This document shows, one piece after another, positions 3,266 to 53,730 of a stretch of 64,000 nucleotides of DNA. The translations under genes and the position numbers were made by a program. Each line of letters opens with the position of its first letter. Position 1 is the stretch's first letter. Origin of the DNA: Pristiophorus japonicus. Lineage: Eukaryota. The stretch lies in contig NC_091989.1 in assembly GCF_044704955.1 (NCBI RefSeq), positions 104,656,001-104,720,000 on the forward strand, in the 5' to 3' direction. Below the pieces are notes generated by a model, which saw nothing but the letters and a program-made list of their open reading frames with translations, was not told the DNA's origin and did no database searches.

Positions 3266-6200
3266 TGATATGTCCTTACTATACAGTATAAATGCACACA
3301 AGGCCCACACTTGAGAGAAGGTCACTCTGTGATCAGTTACCTTTATTACCAAAACCTCAAATGATGAAGATGATTGGAGCTTCCCCTTTTATACCTGAAA
3401 GTCCAGGTTCGGAGTGTCTCCCACAAGTTCACCCCCTTGTGGTCAATGTTCTCAAGGTGTACAACTTAGGTCAGCTTTTACATGGGTTACAATGATAGTT
3501 GAATACATGACATCACCTCCCCCCAAAGTCTTATTGGGATCACAGGTTGAGTCTCTCTGGTGATTTACGCTCCCTTGTAGAGCGCCTGAGTTGGGGCTCC
3601 GGTTGTTGGGCATAGGCCTGAGTGTCTGCTGTTTGCGGTGCCTCAGGCCTGTCTGGACTGCCCACAGTGACTGGGCTCTCCTCCCTTGGTTCCGTTGTTC
3701 GGTCACCTGTGGTGGAGTAAATTCTACATTGTGTTCTTCCTCTGCTTCTTCTATGGTGTTGCTGAACCTCCTTTTAGTTTGATCCACGTGTTTGCGGCAG
3801 ATTTGTCCATTGTTAAGTTTAACTACCAAAACCCTATTCCCCTCTTTGGCAATCACAGTGTCTGCAAGCCATTTGGGCCCTACAGTGTAATTAAGGACAA
3901 AAACAGGGTACATCGCGCCCTCGCATTCCTGTCATGGTAGTCACATTGTGACTGATGCCTGCTCTCAACAATTTCTTTCATAGTGGGATGTATAAGGGAT
4001 AACCTGGTTTTGAGCATCCTTTTAATTAGCAGCTCTGAGGGTGGAACCCCTGTGAGCGAGTGTGGTCGGGATCTGTTGGCCAACAGGAGGCATGATAAGC
4101 GGTTTTGTAGGGATCCCCCTTGGATTCTGAGCATCCCCTGTTTGATTATCTGCACTGCTCGTTCCACCTGGCCATTTGAGGCCGGCTTGAACGGTGCCGT
4201 TCTGACATGGTTGATTCCATTGCCTGTCATGAAGTCCTGGAATTCAGTGCTTGTGAAGCATGGGCCATTGTCGCCGACCAAGACATCCAGTAGATCATGG
4301 GTGGCTAACATTGCCCGTAGACTTTCTACCGTGGCAGAGGATGTGCTTGAATTTAAAATGGCACACTCAATCCATTTGGAGTAGGTGTCTACTACAACCA
4401 AAAACATTTTTCCCATGAAAGGACCTGTGTAGTCCACATGGATGCGTGACCATGGCTTGGTGGGCCAGGATCAGTGGCTAAGGGGGGGCTTCCCTGGGTG
4501 CGTTGCCCAGCTGAGCACATGTGTTGCACCTGCGAACACAAAGTTCCAGGTCTGCATCTATCCCTGGCCATCAAATGTGTGACCTGGCAATTGCCTTCAT
4601 CATGACAATGCCTGGGTGCTCATTGTGCCTTCATCATGACAATGCCCGGGTGCTCATTGTGAAGTTCTCTGATAAACACCTCTCTGCCCATCTGGGGCAT
4701 GACTACTCGGTTTCCCCACAGTAGGCAATCGGCCTGAATCGAGAGCTCATCCTTGTGCCTATGAAACAGTTTAAATTCCTCAGGGCATGCCCCGTACGTG
4801 GCTGCCCAGTCCCCATTCAGGACACATTTCTTAACTAAAGTCAGTAGCGGGTCTTTATTTGTCCAGACTTTAATTTGACGGGCTGTCACAGGTGAGCCTT
4901 CGCTTTTGAAAGTTTCAACAGCCATGACCATCTCAACATCATGCTCAGTTGCCCCCTCAGTGGTGGCTAGTGGGAGCCTGCTGAGTGCATTGATGCAGTT
5001 TTCAGTGCCCGGTCTGTGCCGAATTGTGTAGTCATAGGTGCCTAACGTGAGTGCCCACCTGCGTATGCGGGCTGATGCATTCGCATTTATGGCCTTGTTG
5101 TCGGCCAAAAGGGACGTTAGGGTTTTGTGATCTGTCTCCAGCTCAAATTTCCTGCCAAACAGGTACTGGTGCATTTTTTTTACTGCATATACAAATGCTA
5201 GCGCATCCTTTTCTACCATCCCGTAGCTCCTTTCTGCCTGGGACAGACTTCTGGAGGCATAAGCTACCGGCTATAACTGACCATTGGCATTCACATGCTA
5301 CAATACACACCTGACCCCATAGGACAAGTTTCTTACATGGGTCATATAACGTTAACAGTTTGTTGGGGCATAACAAATTGCCTGCTCTATCAAAAGTCTT
5401 TTCCTGGCTGTCCCCCCAGACCCAATCGCAACCTTTGCGTAGGAGCATGTGTAGCGGCTCTAACAGCGTGCTCAATTTGGGAAGAAAGTTACCAAAATAG
5501 TTCAGGAGCCCCAGGAACGAACGCAGCTCTGTCTTGTTACGGGGTCCGGGTGCTCTCTGGATCGCTTCCATTTTGGATGCAGTGGGTCTGATCCCGTCTG
5601 CTGCTACCCTCCTCCCCAGGAATTCTATCTCTGCAGCTAAGAAGACGCACTTCGCCTTTTTCAGTCGCAGCCCTACCGGTCCAGTCTGCGTAGCATCTCC
5701 TCCAGGTTGTGGAGGTGTTCTTCAGTATCACGACCCGTGATGAGAATGTCGTCTTGAAAAACCACCGTCCTTGGAATCGACTTGAGGAGGCTTTCCATAT
5801 TTTGCTGAAAGATCACGGCGGCCGAACGAATCCAGAACGGACATCTGTTATACTCAAACAACCCCTTGTGTGTCGTGATGGTGGTCAGCTTCTTCAACTC
5901 ACTCGCCAGCTCCTGGGTCATGTAAGCTGAGGTCAGGTACAATTTTGAAAAAAGTTTGCCACCGGATAACATCGCAAAGAGGTCTTCCACTCTCAGTAGT
6001 GGGTACTGGTCTTGGAGTGACACCCGATTGATGGTGGCCTTCTAATCACCACATATCCTGACCGACCCATCCGCGTTGAGCCCCGGCACGATCGGGTTTG
6101 CCCAGTCACTGAATTCGACTGGCGAGATGATGCCTTCCCTCAGCAGGCGGTCCAATTCGTATTCTTTTCCCTCATCATGTAAGGCCCCGCTTTGGCCTTG

Positions 6201-8018
6201 TGGTGTACTGGCCTGGCGTCCGGGCTTATGTGAATCACTACCTTGGCCCCCATGAAAGTGCCGATGCCGGGTTGAAATAATGAGTCAAATTTGTCCAGGA
6301 CCTGTGAGCATGATACTTGCTCCACAGAAGAAATTGCATTGACATCGTCCCATTTCCGTTCCACAACAGCAAGCCAACTCCTCCCGAGTAGTGCGGGACC
6401 ATCCCCCGGGACAATCCAGAGTGGCAACCTGTTCTCCGAATCTTTGTGGGTCACGACTGCCGTGGTGCTGCCTAGCACCGGAATGATCTCCTTTGTATAT
6501 GTCCGTAGCTGTGCGTCAATCAGCAATAATTTTGGCCTCCTGGCCTTGGACACCCACAACCTTTCGAACTGTTTGATACTCATCAGGGACTGGCTGGCCC
6601 CCGTGTCTAGCTCCATTAATACTGGGATGCCATTGAGGAGCACTTTCATCATTATCGGTGGCGTCCTGGTATATGAACTGTATATGTGCTCCACATGAAC
6701 TCGCTGAACTTCAGCTTCCAGCGATTTCCCCCAGTATTCATTTGGCCTCGTAGGGCTTACATCGGGCCCGTCCTTCTCGGACACCAACCTGGCTGCAGGT
6801 TTCCTGCACACATGCGCCAAGTGATCGCTGACGTTGCAGTTTCTGCAGGTATATTGCTGATACCTGCAAGCTCTGGCTGTGTGTTTGCCTCCACATCTCC
6901 AGCATGAGCTGGAGGCCCCATTGTTGGAAACTAAAGGTCCATTACCAGTCGATCGTCTCTGACTGTCTCTGTAACTGTCCTTAAGCGCACCATTAACAGG
7001 TATTGATGGCCCCATTTCTGGCCCCATTGTCCATTGCGATGGCATGAATCGCCGTTCAGCTAGCCATTGTCTCTGTTGAATTCCCCATTTGGGTTCGACT
7101 ACATGCTGGGCCATGTCCGATTGCCCTTGTCTGCCTAGAGAACTGTGTGCCGCATTAACAATGTTGACTCCCTGGTCGTTTGCCGCATTTGAGCCAAGAT
7201 TTTTGTCATACATCATTCTGGTCTCTTCCTCCTCTGAGATAAATGTCTGGGCTATCAGAGCCTCCGCTTCCAAGGTCAAGTCTTTGGTCTCAATCTGTTT
7301 CCTGAAAACCCCAGCATACCCGATGCCCTCAATAAAAAAGTCTCACAGCATCTCCGCTCTGCATGCATCTGGGAACTTACATTGGCTCGCCAGTCGCCGG
7401 AGATCTGCCTCGAAGTCTGGAACGGTTTGACCTTCTCGCCGCCGGTGCGTGTAAGACCGGTGTCTCGCCATGTGCATGCTGCTCGCCGGTTTAATGTGTT
7501 ACCCGATCTACTTACTGAGCTCTTCAACCGTCTTGTCCACCGGCTTCTCTGGCGCTAGAAGGTCCTTCATCAGGGAATAGGTTCTGGATCCACAAACCGT
7601 CAGGAGATGAGCCCTGTGTTTGTCGGCCGAATCCTGTCCCAACCATTCCTTAGTGACAAAACTTTGCTGTAGTCTCTCAATAAAGTCATTCCAATCATCA
7701 CCAATACAGTACCTCTCTTCTGTGCTGCTATTGGCCATGCTCGCATGGTTTAAATCCCAGTTTCTCATCGCCAATGATATGTCCTTACTATACAGTATAA
7801 ATGCACATGAGGCCCATACTTGAGAGAAGGTCACTCTGACCAGTTACCTTTATTACCAAGACCTCAAGTGATGAAGGTGGGTGGAGCTTCCCCTTTTATA
7901 CCTGAAAGTCCAGGTTAGGAGTGTCTCCCACAAGTTCGCCCCTTGTGGTCAATATTCTCAAGGTGTACAACTTAGGTCAGCTTATACATGGGTTACAATG
8001 ATAGTTGAATACATGACA
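3266..8018 (-). mobile_element. Full-length decayed Ty3/Gypsy element nested antisense in the 5' LTR of the outer element
   Basis: LTRs 7775-8018 and 3266-3512 (TGTCATG...ATATCA on minus), TSD ATAAC (3261-3265 and 8019-8023), PBS tggcgatgag about 7764-7773, PPT 3513-3530. Confidence 0.95.
3540..7740 (-). pseudogene. Inner Gypsy gag-pol, disrupted
   Basis: Zinc knuckles CWRCGGKH/CRNCNVSDH, protease LDTGA, RT VFQDDILITG, RNase H ETDHK, integrase DYTGP...DNGP...SNGQVER. A 34-bp tandem duplication (4592-4659) frameshifts the integrase N-terminus. Confidence 0.9.
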
Positions 8019-8198
8019 ATAACCACCAGAGAGCTTATCTCCTGGAGTACCTTGGGAGCACCTGCATATAAGGAGGCCTCACAGGCTGGAGAGGCACTCT
8101 GAGATCTGTAATAAAGGACTACGGTCACACTTAGTATCCAGCTTGAGTATCTAGTCTGACTCTTTATCCAAGATACAACAACTGGCAACGAGATACAG

Positions 8199-11100
8199 AT
8201 GACGAACCCCAATGCAACGATGCAGAGAATTGTGGGCATCCTGGAGAAATTTTCGGAGGAAGATGATTAGGAAACCTTCGTGTAGCGACTTGACTGATAC
8301 TTCGTGGCCCATGAGCTGGAAGGAGAAGGGAACGCTGCCAAATTAAGGGAAATCCTCCTCACCGTTTGCGGGGTACTAACGTATGGCCTCATGAAAAACC
8401 TGCTCACTCCAGTAAAACCCACAGACAAGTCATACGATGAGTTGTGCACTCTGGTCCAGGAGCATCTAAACCCGAAGGAAAGCATTTTGATGGTGAGATA
8501 TCGGTTCTACACATACAAGAGGTCTGAAGGAAGTGGCGAGCTACGTTGCCGAGCTAAGGCACCTTTCAAGACATTGCGAATTTGAAGGACACTTGGAGCA
8601 TATGCTCAGGGACTTCTTTGTACTTGGCATTAGCCATGAAGTGATATCAAGACCCCAAACCTGAGTAAAGCCATAGTGATAGCCCAGGCATTCATCTCCA
8701 CCAGTGACAATACCAAACAAATTTCCCAGCACACTAGTGCTGCTGCAAATACTGTGAACAAAGTAACGTTTTTGAATCAAAATGTACATGTCAGGACTTA
8801 CACGCCTGTAGCTGCATGTCCGCAGATGACTCAGAGTCCGCCATCAAGGATGGTGAATACAAGGCAATTAACACCTTGTTGGCGCAGCGGGGATGATCAT
8901 CGATTCCATTCATGCCGCTTCAAAGGAGACGTTTGCAAAGGCTGTGGAACAATGGGACACCTCCAACGTATATGCAGGCGAGCTGCAAACCCTGCTAATC
9001 CTGCAAACCACCATGTTGCAGAGGAGGACAGATCCACGGTGGATCATGACGAACCAGAGCCTCAGACCGAGGAGGCAGAGATATATGGGGTGCACACATT
9101 TACCATAAAGTGTCCCCCAATAATGCTGAAGGTTGAATTAAATGGACTCCCAGTGTCCAAGTTGTACACGGGCGCAAGCCAGTCCATAATGAGTAAACAG
9201 ACTTCGATAAGTTGTGGTGCAACAAGGCTTCAAGGCCAGTCCTGACTCCCATTCATAACAAAATTAGAACATACACAAAGGAACTGATTCCTGTAATTGG
9301 CAGAGCTACTGTGAAGGTCTCCTACGATGAAGCGGTGCACGATTTACCACTCTGGGTGGTACCAGGCAATGGCCCCACATTGTTCGGCAGGAGCTGGCTG
9401 GGAAAGATATGCTGGAACTGGGATGACATCCGAGCGCTTTCGTCCGTCGACGACACCTCATGTGCCCAGGTCCCTCGCTGTTCGAACCTAGTATCGGGAA
9501 GTTCCAAGGAGTAAAAGGGCAGATCCTTTTCATTCCGGGGTACGCAACCCATCCATCACAAGGCGAGAGCGGTACCTTACATGATGAGAGAGAGGGTGGA
9601 GATCGAGCTGGACAGGCTGCAATGAGAGGGCATCATTTTGCTGATCGAATTCAATGAGTGGGCCAGTCCAATTGTTCCAGTCCTCAAGGGAGACGGCACT
9701 GTCAGAATCTGTGGTGATTACAAAGTAACTATCAATCGTTTCTCACTGCAGGATCAATACCCACTACCAAAGGCAGACGACCTATTTGCGGCGCTGGCAG
9801 GAGGGAAACTCTTCACGAAGCTGGAATTGACCTCGGCCTACATGACGCAAGTGCTGGAGGAATCTTCTAAAGGCCTCACCTGCATCAACACGCACAAAGT
9901 CTTTTCATTTACAACAGATGCCTGTTTGGGATTCGATTGGCCGCGGCGATATTCCAGAGGAACATGGAAAGCTTGCTGAAGTTGTTCCCACACACCATGG
10001 TCTTCCAGGACGACTTCTTGGTTACAGGTCAGGATGCCGTTGAGCATCTGCAGAACCTGGAGGAGGTTCTTAGTCGACTTAATCATGTGGGGCTCAGGCT
10101 AAAATGCTCAAAATGCGTTTTCCTGGTGCCTGAAGTGGAGTTCCTGAGGAGAATAATCAGAGCGGACGGCATCAGGCCCACCGATTCGAAGACAGAGGCA
10201 ATCAAAACGCACAAGGACCACAGAACGTGATGGAGCTTCGGTCGTTTCTAGGACTCCTGAACTATTTTGGCAACTTCTTACCGGGTCTTAGCACATTGTT
10301 AGAACCCCTGCAATTTTTACTGCGTAAAGGAGATGAATGGGTATGGGGTAAAAGCCAAGAAAATGCCTTTGGGAAAGCTAGGAAGCTGTTATGTTCAAAC
10401 AAATTGCTTGTGTTGTAACGATCCATGTAAATATTTGGTATTAGCATGTGATGTGTCGTCGTATGGGGTCAGGTGTGTATTGCAACAAGCTAATGTATTT
10501 GGGAAATTACAACCGGTTGCTTATGCATCCAGAAGTCTGTCTAAGGCAGGGAGGGCCTACAGCATGATCGAAAAAGAAGCGTTAGCATGTGTTTGCGGGG
10601 TAAAGAAAATGCATCAATATCTGTTCGGGCTCAAATCTGAATTGAAACCAACCATAAGCCGCTTATATCCCTCTTTTCTGAAAATAAGGGGATAAATACA
10701 AATGCATCGGCCCGAATCCAGAGATGGGCGCTTACATTGTCCGCATACAACTACGCCATCCGCAACAGGCCAGGCACAGAAAACTGTGCCAATGCTCTCA
10801 GTAGGCTGCCATTGCCCACCACCGGGGTGGAGATGGCGCAGCCTGCAAATTTAATTATGGTATGGAAGCATTCGAGAGTGAGCAATCACCTGTTACCGCC
10901 CAACAGATTAGAATCTGGATGAACCAGGACCCCTAACTGTCCTTAGTAAAAAAAACTGTGTGCTCCATGGGAGTTGATCTAGTGTCCCGTTAGAGATGCA
11001 GGAAGAAATAAAGCTCTACCAGCGGTGCAAGGATGAAATGTCTATACAGGCAGACTGCCTCCTATGGGGTAATCGGGTAGTTGTGCCAAAAACGGGCAGG

Positions 11101-12230
11101 GACACTTTCATTAGTTATCTCCACAGTACCCACACAGGCATTGTAATGATGAAAGCGATAGCCAGATCCCACGTGTGGTGGCCCGGTATCGATGCAGACT
11201 TAGAGTCCTGCGTGCACAAATGTAACACATGTTCCCAGTTAAGCAATGCACCCAGGGAGGCGCCACTAAGTTTATGTTCTTGGCCCACCAAACCGTGGTC
11301 TAGGGTTCATGTCGACCATGCAGGCCCATTCTTGGGAAAAATATTTTTAGTGGTTGTCGATGCGTATTCCAAGTGGATTGAATGTGTGATAATGTCTGCA
11401 AGCACGTCTGCTGCCACCATTGAAAGCCTACGGGCTACCTGATGTCCTTGTGAGTGACAATGGGCCGTGCTTTACCAGTGCCGAATTCAAGGAATTCATG
11501 ACTCACAATGGGGTCAAACATGTCACATCTGCCCTAATTCAGCCAGCGTCCAATGGTTAGGCAGAACGAGCAGTTTAAACAATCAAGCAGAGCTTGAAAA
11601 GAGTAACTGAAGGTTCACTGCAGACTCGCTTATCGCGAGTCCTGCTTAGTTACCGCATAAGGCCTCACTCGCTCACCGGGGTCCCTCCCGTTGAACTGCT
11701 CATGAAAAGGGCACTTAAGACAAGGCTCTCGTTAGTCCACCCTGATCTACATGAACAGGTAGAGAGCAGGCGGCTTCAACAGAATACATATCATGATCGC
11801 GCAAATGTGTCACGCGAAATTGAAGTAAATGATCCTGTATTTGTGTTGAATTATGGACAAGGTCCCAAGTGGATTGCTGGCACTGTTTTGGCCAAAGAAG
11901 GGAGTCGGGTCTTTGTGGTCAAACTTGCAAATGGACTCACCTGCAGAAAATACTTGGACCAAACCAAACTCAGATTTACGGACTATCCAGAACAACCCAC
12001 AATAGACCCTACCTTTTTTGACCCTCCAACACACATACAAGTGGCAACCAACCCAGCGGTTGACCACGAAGCAGAACCCATCACCCACAGCAGCCCAGCA
12101 AGACTTACCACCCCCAGCAGCCCAGCAAGGCCAGCTGCACAGCAGCCCAGCAAGGGCCCAACAAACGACTCACCAACACCAGGGATGATCAACCAGGGAA
12201 AGGAAGGCCCCACATCGACTCATATTGTAA
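8199..12230 (+). pseudogene. Outer Gypsy gag-pol, disrupted by frameshifts and stops
   Basis: ORFs 8304, 8676, 9212, 9638, 9937, 10227, 10333, 10996 and 11594 tile gag, protease, RT, RNase H and integrase in Gypsy order. Confidence 0.9.
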
Positions 12231-12588
12231 ATAGTTACACTATTGACTTTGGGGGGGGGGGGGAGTGTTGTTATGTATGTGAGCCTGTAATTAACATGTC
12301 TAACCATCAGAGGGCTTGTCCCCTGGAGTCCCAAGGGATCCCACAATCCCTTCGGAGCACCTGTACATAAGGAGGCCTCACAGGCTGGAGAGGCACTCTG
12401 AGATCTGTAATAAAGGACTACGGTCACACCTTACTTTGAGCTTGAGTATCTAGTCTGACTCTTTATCCAAGATACAACAGTCATGAGATGCAATTAACCC
12501 CAAATATCATCAGGCAGACCATAATGGAGGTGATGAAAGGTACATGATTTAGGATTGATTCAAGGATTCTGAGTGGGAAAGCTCTATC

Positions 12589-50996: not shown

Positions 50997-51113
50997 CTTT
51001 ACGTTTACATTTACAAAATTTACAACAAAGTATTGCTGCAATAATCAGGAGCAGCAGAGCTATTGCTCCACAGAGATAGATCCACCAAGGCAAAGGGTCA
51101 CTGACACCATTAT
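50997..51113 (-). CDS. Transmembrane exon of the Ig-superfamily protein
   Basis: Acceptor tgtcttacag|, donor |gtaaga, 117 bp, phase 1-1. Encodes DNGVSDPLPWWIYLCGAIALLLLIIAAILCCKFCKCKRK. Confidence 0.85.
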
Positions 51114-51856
51114 CTGTAAGACACATACAAAACAGAAAAATAAAGTCATTCACTTTCAGAAGGAAAATGACGGTGCAGCAGGTTAGCACTTTCTGCTTTC
51201 ACCTCTAACATCCCCAGCTCTTTCGGGTGGCTCTATACTGTTTATATTATGAATTCCCCACACAAAAACGGCACACCAACCTTCACACCCAATATTCAAA
51301 TTAATGCTCCTGGGACATAATGGTTGGTGCCAGAAGTGCCAAACTCATAAAATTACACCTCATGAGCCTTATGTGTAATGATTTAAGAATCTCAATCCAG
51401 TTTCTAGTTGGTGTGGGTCAGAACTGTCTTCAATTCAGTCCAGATTAGCAATAAATAATCTCTCAATTGGATGATCCAAAAGGTTGGCTTATGGGAGTGA
51501 ACTGCTGTTTCCCAGTTACTTTCACTCTTGCCTTAATCTTTCATAATTACCATCTGCAAATTACCATGTCAATTATGTCATGTGGTCCTCAGTACTTACC
51601 ATCTAAGGTCTGTAATTCAACCACTCAAAAAGGCAGACTGGGACAATGGGCAACACCTGACTCTGGTTCCTCTTATTCGTCTATCCACTGTTGACTGTAG
51701 AGCACAACGGTTATTTTATTTTTTGCCCTTTTTTTGTCTTCTGCCTTTTCACTACTGTTGTTCAGATCTGACCTTACAGAGCAAAAGGTCACAAGTTCAA
51801 CTCCTGGCCTGTGTTAGGTTAGCTAGACAGAATAGCTGTTGAGGTGCTACAAGTTT

Positions 51857-51993
51857 GGGAGGAGTAACTATGATTCTCTTCGAGGAGCCTAGGGTTACAA
51901 AGTAGCTGTGACCATCTTTTGAGTTCTAAATCACAGTGACTCTTACCTCCACGTGGTCCTGCTGGGCAACATTTCGATGTTGGCTAAATGACT
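51857..51993 (+). ncRNA. HDV-like self-cleaving ribozyme of R2 type, partly decayed
   Basis: P3 ACC/GGU (51945-47, 51955-57), L3 UCCACGU, P1' CCUGCU, GG (P1.1), P4 CAACAU-UUCG-AUGUUG (51967-51982), J4/2 GCUAA with putative catalytic C51984, P2' AUGACU. Confidence 0.72.
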
Positions 51994-52898
51994 GGCCGAG
52001 TAACTCAAAATAGGCAGGGTAACCATAACTGCCTCAACCTCTCAAAAAGTTACCGCAGGGCTTTTGAGTAGGTCTCAGCCAGTAAGTCTTCCGTCTTAAT
52101 GTTGGAGAGTCAAGGGTTACGAGGTAGCTGTGCCATCTTTTGAGTACTAAGTCTCAGTGAGTCATACTTGCACGCGGTCCGTCAGATTGACTGGCCGAGT
52201 AAATCAGAGTGGCTTCCCGTAGGAGGGGATAGCAAACCTAAGAAAAATGGTCCGTTTTGATTTCCGTGGTGTTCAAACTGGGATGGGGCCCAGACAAAAG
52301 CCCTGTGTCAAATTTGCTGATGGGGGTCAGACAGGGCTGACAAACCAGACTCTGCCAATTAAGACCGTGACCAGGCGAGAGTAAAGACAATTTAAATGCA
52401 ATCAACAGCAGTTAATCAACTCGGGTTACCCTAGATAGGAAGTCGCCACTATTCCAAGGGATCAGGGGCCACGAAAAGATTCTCCAAGTTGACAATGTCA
52501 AAAAGGACACTGGGGAAAAGCACTTCTGTGTTATCAAAAACTGTCCGAGATTTCAAGACCACAGCCCCAAGATGCGGGTATGGAACCAGGTCGGATTCCA
52601 CACGGAGTGTAAAAAGTTGTATTGTTTGTTATAGTAACCTGTGTCTGTTATAATAAAACTTCGTACGCATCAGTGCGACTCCGTTTCGCCTCTACCTTGG
52701 TGGTGGCTTCCATGCTTGGTGAGACCTGTGTTGTCCGCCCATATTCATTAAAGATCTACCCGGTTCTTCCTAACACCCGAGTATCCGCAGCCCTCCTTAG
52801 CCTGTGATGATTCGCTGGACTTTGCACCGTGGATAAGCCATGTAAAGACTCGAAATAGGCATTCTTTTAATGTGACCCGTCGCACAACTGTACCCAAA
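51857..52898 (+). mobile_element. Probable non-autonomous R2-derived retroelement (SIDE-like) outside rDNA
   Basis: 5' leader matches 28S rRNA upstream of the R2 site (ggagtaactatgattctctt 51861-51880, 19/20). HDV-like ribozyme core follows. 3' end AAA abuts TAGCC (52899-52903). Confidence 0.72.
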
Positions 52899-52979
52899 TA
52901 GCCTCATTGCCGTTCATCCAGGGAGGGGAAAAGAACAGATCAGCCAAAGCTCATGATTTATTTCCAGTGATACTGGAAT

Positions 52980-53433: not shown

Positions 53434-53730
53434 CTGCAATGCCGACCGTGTAATTGACCCAAGTTGGACCCGTGAGGGTAGGGTGAGATACCTCACAAAT
53501 ATAAACAGTCCCAATCTGAATAGGCGGTATCTCTTCCAAATAACTGAAAGCTTCATATAGTCCCTCAGTATTCAGCTCAACGAATTTTGTTACTCCAGTC
53601 GCAACTTCTTGACCATCTTTACGCCAAGCAATGGTGTGATCAGCAGGGTAGAACCCAGACGTTTTACACAAACACATTAGAGAACCATTTGCAAACAGGG
53701 TTGGAAAAATCTTCAGAGGTTCTGGAGAAG
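53434..53730 (-). CDS. Ig C1-set domain exon (SIRP/NCR3LG1/tapasin-like architecture; family unresolved)
   Basis: Acceptor ttttctatag|, donor |gtagga, 297 bp, phase 1-1. Motifs CKTSGFYP, AWRKDG, GLYEAFSYL, YICEVSHPTL; sequons NGS and NYT. Confidence 0.9.

Follow-up and report, generated by a model that had tools for sequence, protein, structure and literature searches.

Closest described systems

R2 SIDEs of Drosophila are non-coding elements with an R2 ribozyme at the 5′ end and an R2 3′ UTR at the 3′ end; they occupy the R2 site and are 64–81% identical to their partner R2 (Eickbush and Eickbush 2012, PMC3414825). The family of elements described here, from Pristiophorus japonicus, has the same organization and shows 66–80% identity to R2 relics. 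It differs from the Drosophila SIDEs of that report in having a vertebrate host, a length of about 1.18 kb instead of 529 bp, two ribozyme units and a P1 strand supplied by the 28S sequence (at −28) rather than by the element. Unlike them, it was found only outside rDNA arrays, has no poly(A) tail and is decayed.

A P1 taken from 28S is a feature of the R2 ribozymes cleaving at −28 (Eickbush, Burke and Eickbush 2013, PMC3774820). According to that paper, R2 cleavage falls at −28 more often than anywhere else, and tandem duplications of 28 nt are tied to the elements that cleave there. The present family has in common with these R2 elements the 28S P1 at −28, its length of 6 bp and one tandem duplication of the head. 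It also resembles them in 5′ extension by duplication with decay of the inner copy, as given in the legend of their fig. 8; however, only a short 28S stretch is duplicated there, whereas here it is a whole ribozyme unit, with the inner loss in L3/P1.1 and in the head.

Insertions of the R2 lineage outside rDNA have been described for R2NS-1_SMed and R2NS-1_CSi (Kojima et al. 2016, PMC5035012). Those are autonomous flatworm elements described as non-specific, whereas here insertion is directed to TAAGR^TAG and a single second site prevails. This preference resembles in part the off-target logo of R2Tg in human cells, compared by its description (PMC12222951): both show the downstream match, have T at −20 and are rich in T and A near the nick. 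R2Tg is a bird protein, engineered and acting in somatic cells, while the insertions reported here are natural and germline, and only three of seven positions agree at −25 to −19. In another off-target study (PMC11371274), hardly any feature other than the downstream match stood out. Sharks and rays do carry R2 (PMC13188248); the elements of that study are defined by their 28S flanks, and its main text contains neither ‘non-autonomous’ nor ‘dispersed’. In the literature searched for SIDEs of sharks or other vertebrates, CR1 targets, tandem R2 ribozymes and R2 outside rDNA, the family is undescribed and SIDEs are reported from Drosophila rDNA only; Repbase, Dfam and supplementary files lay outside this search and may name the family. 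The ribozyme type is already known, and the R2 SIDE kind is extended to a vertebrate.

A dispersed non-coding element

The window is the whole stretch of 64 000 nucleotides analysed. The first-pass annotation had read the ribozyme-like fold at 51857–51993 by itself; the fold in fact heads a dispersed non-autonomous element of about 1.2 kb, with 36 independent insertions. The window copy of this SIDE-type, R2-derived element covers 1042 bp (51857–52898, forward strand) and contains no ORF; its borders are set by the ends of the family matches and by the CCCAAA 3′ end at 52898. It begins with a 28S-derived head (51857–51880, +) that corresponds to positions −28 to −5 of the R2 site in the genome's own 28S (L033), and it finishes with an R2-like 3′ UTR end (52677–52898, +). 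The next four nucleotides, TAGC (52899–52902, +), are those of 28S +1 to +4 at the R2 nick.

When the 5.9 Gb genome was searched with window positions 51840–52950, 40 candidates were scored and produced 56 matches, whose ends cluster at 51857 and about 52900 (query 16–23 to 1060–1064). With further searches and fetched stretches there are 39 places, or 36 independent insertions once three segmental duplicates are subtracted, which is a lower bound. The three duplicates and one divergent copy (C21) are left out of the motif counts. The family consensus is about 1.18 kb long, and no long reading frame was found in the three forward frames of the consensus or of five copies. Divergence from the consensus at non-CpG sites is 7–14% among 18 copies and 8.3% for the window copy. 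The family tree (28 rows) is star-like, with few supported groups.

Other classes of element were considered and rejected. An LTR or proviral origin, hinted at by AATAAA near 52652, does not agree with the lack of a terminal repeat and the R2-type ends. A Pol III SINE does not fit a head made of 28S sequence, and Rfam gives no match over the element; an autonomous R2 does not fit a family devoid of ORFs.

One 5′-truncated insertion has been multiplied in near-identical segmental duplicates at 11 loci (L014–L018, L020–L022, L024, L026 and L027, on C20 and small contigs), which suggests a large, recently duplicated cluster.

The ribozyme of the window copy

The element opens with the HDV-like double-pseudoknot order P1, P2, P3, P1.1, P4, and all of these helices are paired in the family consensus. 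The 5′ strand of P1 is formed by the first 6 nt of the 28S-derived head, which matches the genome's own 28S at 19 of 20 nt, in agreement with the origin proposed by the first-pass annotation. J1/2 (51863–51938, +), predicted to contain two hairpins in the family consensus (ViennaRNA), leads to the 5′ strand of P2 (51939–51944, +), which is ACTCTT in the window copy and AGTCGT in the family. The following segment (51945–51957, +) consists of P3 (ACC, 51945–51947), L3 with the CC of P1.1 (TCCACGT, 51948–51954) and P3′ (GGT, 51955–51957). P1′ and the GG of P1.1 (51958–51963 and 51964–51965, +) come next; P1′ reads CCTGCT, and the family sequence CCCGCT bears out the single CpG transition that had been postulated for it. 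P4 is a 6 bp hairpin with a UUCG loop (51967–51982, +; CAACAT at 51967–51972 and ATGTTG at 51977–51982). The last segment (51983–51993, +) comprises J4/2, with a C at the catalytic position 51984, and the 3′ strand of P2, ATGACT (51988–51993). Every segment listed earlier, including an AGTCAT at 52160, is present where it had been placed.

Further HDV-like marks are the A that follows the J4/2 C, the U-C-C…G of L3 and the G at +1 in a G·U wobble. The 51945–51957 region is identical at 10 of 11 nt to the conserved R2 motif given in PMC5035012. Position 51951, in L3, is an A where that motif has U; a U-to-A change in the catalytic region, which may or may not be at this position, is reported for hybrid SIDEs (PMC3414825).

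The window copy pairs five of six positions in P1 (with one G·G), four of six in P2, and all positions in P3 (three), P1.1 (two) and P4 (six), so the mismatches noticed in P1 and P2 are real. The P2 duplex is worth +0.3 kcal/mol, as compared with −6.2 in the consensus. The unconstrained fold is unremarkable (z −0.51), and in the fold predicted by ViennaRNA the head is paired with the P2/P3 strand instead. With one P1 and two P2 mismatches, a predicted misfold and an antisense position in a host intron, the window copy is probably inert, which agrees with the impairment suspected from the first reading. A single P1 mismatch is accompanied by no cleavage in horseshoe crab R2 (PMC3774820).

Comparison with HDV-like models, proposed as a check, gave a divided result. 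No ribozyme family was matched in the element by the Rfam scan (gathering and E-value thresholds). The HDV core descriptor without P1 found 0.13–0.45 matches per shuffled window (60 shuffles), and the core alone is weak evidence for ribozyme identity. The descriptor stands out from shuffled sequence only once P1 is required: 300 shuffles contained eight matches at the pairing level of the window copy and none at that of the family consensus. The case for a ribozyme is based on the family and not on the descriptor, and it is the family, rather than the probably inert window copy, that is the useful part of the finding.

The ribozyme across the family

In the free fold of the family consensus, P1, the P3 region, P4 and the two J1/2 hairpins are formed, and the P2 strands are mostly unpaired. 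The ancestral P2 is AGUCGU/ACGACU: ACGACT is the P2 3′ strand in 13 of 18 copies, and ATGACT occurs only in the window copy. The pair AGUCAU/AUGACU, which the first-pass annotation had taken to be ancestral, is therefore rejected; it combines a private CpG change of the window copy with a strand, at 52160, from another, decayed ribozyme that has a partner strand of its own. The catalytic-position C is kept in 17 of 18 copies, and the L3 G, a CpG site, in nine of 16, including the window copy. P1.1 is invariant in all 14 aligned cores (eight of the family and six of relics, in hand-picked rows).

Conservation and covariation of P1–P4 among homologous copies had been named as a further check. 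The consensus pairs all helices. Within the family, stem covariation is not above that of shuffles: 265 of 500 shuffles attain its score, and dead copies derived from a single master would be expected to behave in this way. Between the family and coding R2 relics, two P4 pairs differ on both sides (hand-picked rows; essentially two changes), and this covariation would lend modest backing to the fold.

The 5′ ends, which stop at or inside −28, appear to be the best evidence for past ribozyme activity. Among the 18 registered heads outside seamless 28S junctions, none has 28S sequence beyond −33, and the identity to 28S at −48 to −29 upstream of them (1–8 of 20) is that of background. Eleven heads reach the −28 region (at least five of seven positions matching) and the other seven begin a few nucleotides inside. 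In three, the match is perfect at the −28 region (seven of seven) and −29 is a mismatch. The head of L050 extends 5 nt past −28, and four of the five also match its target. One copy located in 28S carries a tandem duplication of the 28 nt head. The sequence evidence thus supports the initial interpretation of an R2-type, HDV-like ribozyme that was probably active in the ancestor.

Four of 17 copies (L004, L006, L023 and L043; first 25 nt) have an altered 28S-derived head, CTCAC, which lengthens the complementarity to the P2 5′ region.

Two ribozyme units

A 221 bp repeat in the element corresponds to an additional ribozyme unit, which has a degenerate 28S head too (52013–52030, +). The remnant of this inner ribozyme lies at 52160–52192 (+); its L3 lacks the CC of P1.1 throughout the family, and the window copy has also lost P1′ and P4. 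The L3 CC is found in none of 19 inner units (17 have GT), as opposed to 16 of 18 outer units. Both single-unit copies, L011 and L048, keep the L3 CC; the former resembles a pre-duplication form and the latter a recombinant.

Cleavage by a working inner unit would detach the outer unit, and a two-unit element is accordingly expected to last only where the inner one has been disabled. The pair of an intact outer and a broken inner ribozyme constitutes a natural test of the Eickbush model of R2 5′-end growth. As read from these copies, the tandem unit would widen the published 5′-extension model, in which a short 28S stretch is duplicated, to the duplication of a complete ribozyme.

Relation to R2

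Three places of the family lie at the exact R2 site of dispersed 28S fragments. The 28S sequence ends at −5 to −2, stopping at 4114–4117 of L033, and resumes at 4119 (nick 4118|4119); the 3′ junction is precisely at +1 in two of the three. No family or R2 copy was found at the R2 site of the assembled rDNA: the junction patterns gave one, one and four matches, none of them in rDNA contigs, in a search whose scope is set by an incomplete rDNA assembly and by the old age of the family. Multi-kilobase 28S pseudogene fragments, 85–93% identical to the current 28S, are present on chromosomes (L012, L066, L125 and L052), L052 being an inverted, deleted duplicate of L125.

The junction search also revealed a second R2 family with an identical head. 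Its members (L113–L116, L192 and L193, on C11, C13, C6, C2, C14 and C7 of G000) have the −28 head and the same fold and are dispersed on chromosomes. This family would once have been autonomous. L114 and L115 are decayed full-length elements, and the only PDB matches of their translated pieces are R2 proteins (E-values 2.7e-11 to 5.7e-4); they match the consensus of the non-coding family at both ends, with 67–78% identity. L192 is full length, has both ends at the CR1 site described below and carries the best-kept ribozyme.

The 5′ end of the non-coding family is 67–70% identical to those of L114, L115, L192 and L193. Its 3′ end is 66–80% identical to the 3′ ends of L114, L115 and eight of 16 RT-bearing regions, the closest relic 3′ UTR being about 72% identical over 220 nt. 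A search for R2 proteins gave 22 further matches, all in short frames; no intact R2 frame is present among them, and the longest stop-free stretch in 18 relic regions is 515 amino acids. tblastn of the relic translations against the family loci was dominated by nested repeats and gave no usable R2-coding signal, and a DNA search with the relic coding region was dominated by a nested SINE.

Three RT-bearing relics (L183, L184 and L186) have a 3′ UTR closer to the non-coding family than that of the second family, and L186 ends in a 28S fragment. They are candidates for the helper lineage.

A hot spot in a CR1-type LINE

Most of the insertions (33 of 36) are outside 28S sequence, the other three being those in dispersed 28S fragments. 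Half of them (18 of 36) occupy a single position of a LINE that we assign, by a motif, to the CR1 type; they comprise 14 independent 3′ junctions and four copies with the upstream half of the LINE at their 5′ end. Of the 27 family 3′ ends examined, 15 (14 without a duplicate) run into this LINE, two into 28S and nine into other sequence, and one is clipped. Five of the nine other junctions start with TAG, two have TAG one base on and two are off by one letter. The 5′ flanks at the other sites end in TAAGR in four of eight cases.

The empty LINE site reads TAAGA^TAGTCA and belongs to the end of ORF2. At least 8378 empty copies were counted, allowing up to two mismatches, which corresponds to under one position in a million. 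Over 12 empty sites, it has in common with 28S the TAAG at −5 to −2, TAG.CA, T at −20, A at −19 and A at −22, with three of seven matches at −25 to −19.

The CR1-site insertions are independent, since their 5′ junctions differ from copy to copy, a single clade of CR1-site copies is rejected (AU p 0.0006), one of them is sister to a 28S-site copy with 100% support, and three coding R2 relics (L192, L193 and L197) use the identical site. Filled flanks are alike at 0.78, as compared with 0.81 between filled and empty sites. For three copies at the CR1 site, no 5′ part was found within about 12 kb.

R2 proteins are under development for site-specific gene insertion, and the rules of their off-target activity come from a few cell-culture screens. 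The shared CR1 site probably marks a place to which R2 deviates from its usual target. The counts give no off-target rate, because rDNA copies turn over and strays remain. With about half of the surviving germline insertions at one non-rDNA site, it offers nicking and TPRT assays a defined substrate.

Origin and mode of spread

The family, with its 28S head, its ends and its insertion sites, has both the ribozyme and the 3′ UTR in common with RT-bearing R2 relics. The fold of the window is very probably the 5′ HDV-like end of a decayed, non-coding SIDE-type derivative of R2. The master copy likely resided in rDNA and likely released itself from the rRNA co-transcript at 28S position −28; its insertion likely depended on an R2 protein borrowed from another element. 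The testable sequence features of an R2 SIDE, namely a ribozyme 5′ end, an R2 3′ UTR, the non-coding character and the 28S R2 site, are all found, as far as sequence can tell. In the transcript, the GGCGGG of 28S would pair with the CCCGCU of the element to form P1, and cleavage would leave 28 nt of rRNA on the RNA. The R2 protein would then bind the 3′ UTR, nick at TAAGR^TAG and reverse transcribe; mobilization in trans is suggested by the shared sites and 3′ UTR. Besides 28S, the CR1-type LINE look-alike would have been used repeatedly, together with scattered TAAGR^TAG sites such as that in the window intron. The master would have carried two ribozyme units, a form that could persist through the inner P1.1 loss because an active inner unit would cut off the outer one. 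The window copy would since have decayed.

A master in rDNA may be compared with a cycle independent of rDNA, in which dispersed copies, freed from Pol II transcripts by their own ribozyme, would serve as masters for an R2 of relaxed specificity. The location of the insertions, all outside 28S or in dispersed 28S fragments, and the lack of copies found in the assembled rDNA agree with such a cycle, but the purging of rDNA copies by turnover and the persistence of strays yield an equal picture. Non-specific R2 families exist (PMC5035012), and the CTCAC head common to four of 17 copies suggests that the head travelled with the element; on the other hand, a star-like tree in which few groups are supported agrees with a small number of masters, and the total copy number is small. 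We consider this cycle unlikely. A single fusion of the derivative with a CR1 3′ end, followed by dispersal through CR1 proteins in the way that the R2/R1 hybrids known from PMC3414825 depend on R1, might be suspected from the 14 independent 3′ junctions running into identical CR1 sequence and from the three CR1-tailed copies with no detectable 5′ part. However, the surviving 5′ ends adjoin the upstream half of the CR1 site, with a junction differing each time, and the filled flanks are no more alike than filled and empty ones. The rejected CR1-site clade and the coding R2 relics at the identical site also contradict this hybrid origin, which is largely refuted and seems quite improbable.

Retention by the host as a regulatory ribozyme, like that of CPEB3, would agree with the intronic position in an expressed gene for a membrane protein with Ig domains and with the intact P3, P1.1, P4 and C51984. 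It appears very improbable for a copy that is antisense to the gene, has diverged as much as its sisters, has its P2/P3 buried under the head in the predicted fold and an unfavourable P2 duplex, and shows a P1 mismatch of the number that accompanies loss of cleavage in horseshoe crab R2 (PMC3774820). A chance match to the HDV descriptor, for which the frequency of the relaxed core in shuffled windows and the empty Rfam result could be invoked, is hardly credible: it is refuted by the family evidence, with a 28S head at −28, a fully paired consensus absent from 300 shuffles and a homologous fold at the head of R2 relics.

A wider reading may be put forward tentatively, although it is more doubtful than probable: vertebrate R2 and its passenger would have had a second life outside rDNA. 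The CR1-type LINE position, with its thousands of empty copies, would be an alternative multicopy target, dispersed copies would be released from the transcripts of the host by the ribozyme that they carry, and the tandem unit would be a snapshot of 5′ extension through duplication of an entire ribozyme, stabilized by loss of the inner active site.

The host gene and the surroundings of the element

The element lies in an intron between two exons of a gene on the reverse strand. The upstream exon (53434–53730, −) encodes an Ig C1-set domain (Pfam PF07654, E-value 3.3e-11) and has AG/GT borders; the downstream exon (50997–51113, −) encodes a transmembrane segment in frame with it. The splice between the two exons is presumed, the transmembrane exon being seen as an isolated 120 nt piece in the X5 and X7 contigs of one sequencing study. 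The element is covered in the X5–X7 contigs, a cover that says neither strand nor expression. Since the element is on the forward strand and the gene on the reverse one, the antisense orientation noted previously holds, and the ribozyme strand is absent from the host pre-mRNA. The host gene codes for a membrane protein with Ig C1-set and transmembrane exons and a juxtamembrane tail rich in Cys and Lys.

Two decayed LTR-retrotransposon pol regions, with RT, RNase H and integrase-like frames, are found on opposite strands at 3452–12370 of the window. CR1/L2-type fragments are numerous elsewhere in it.
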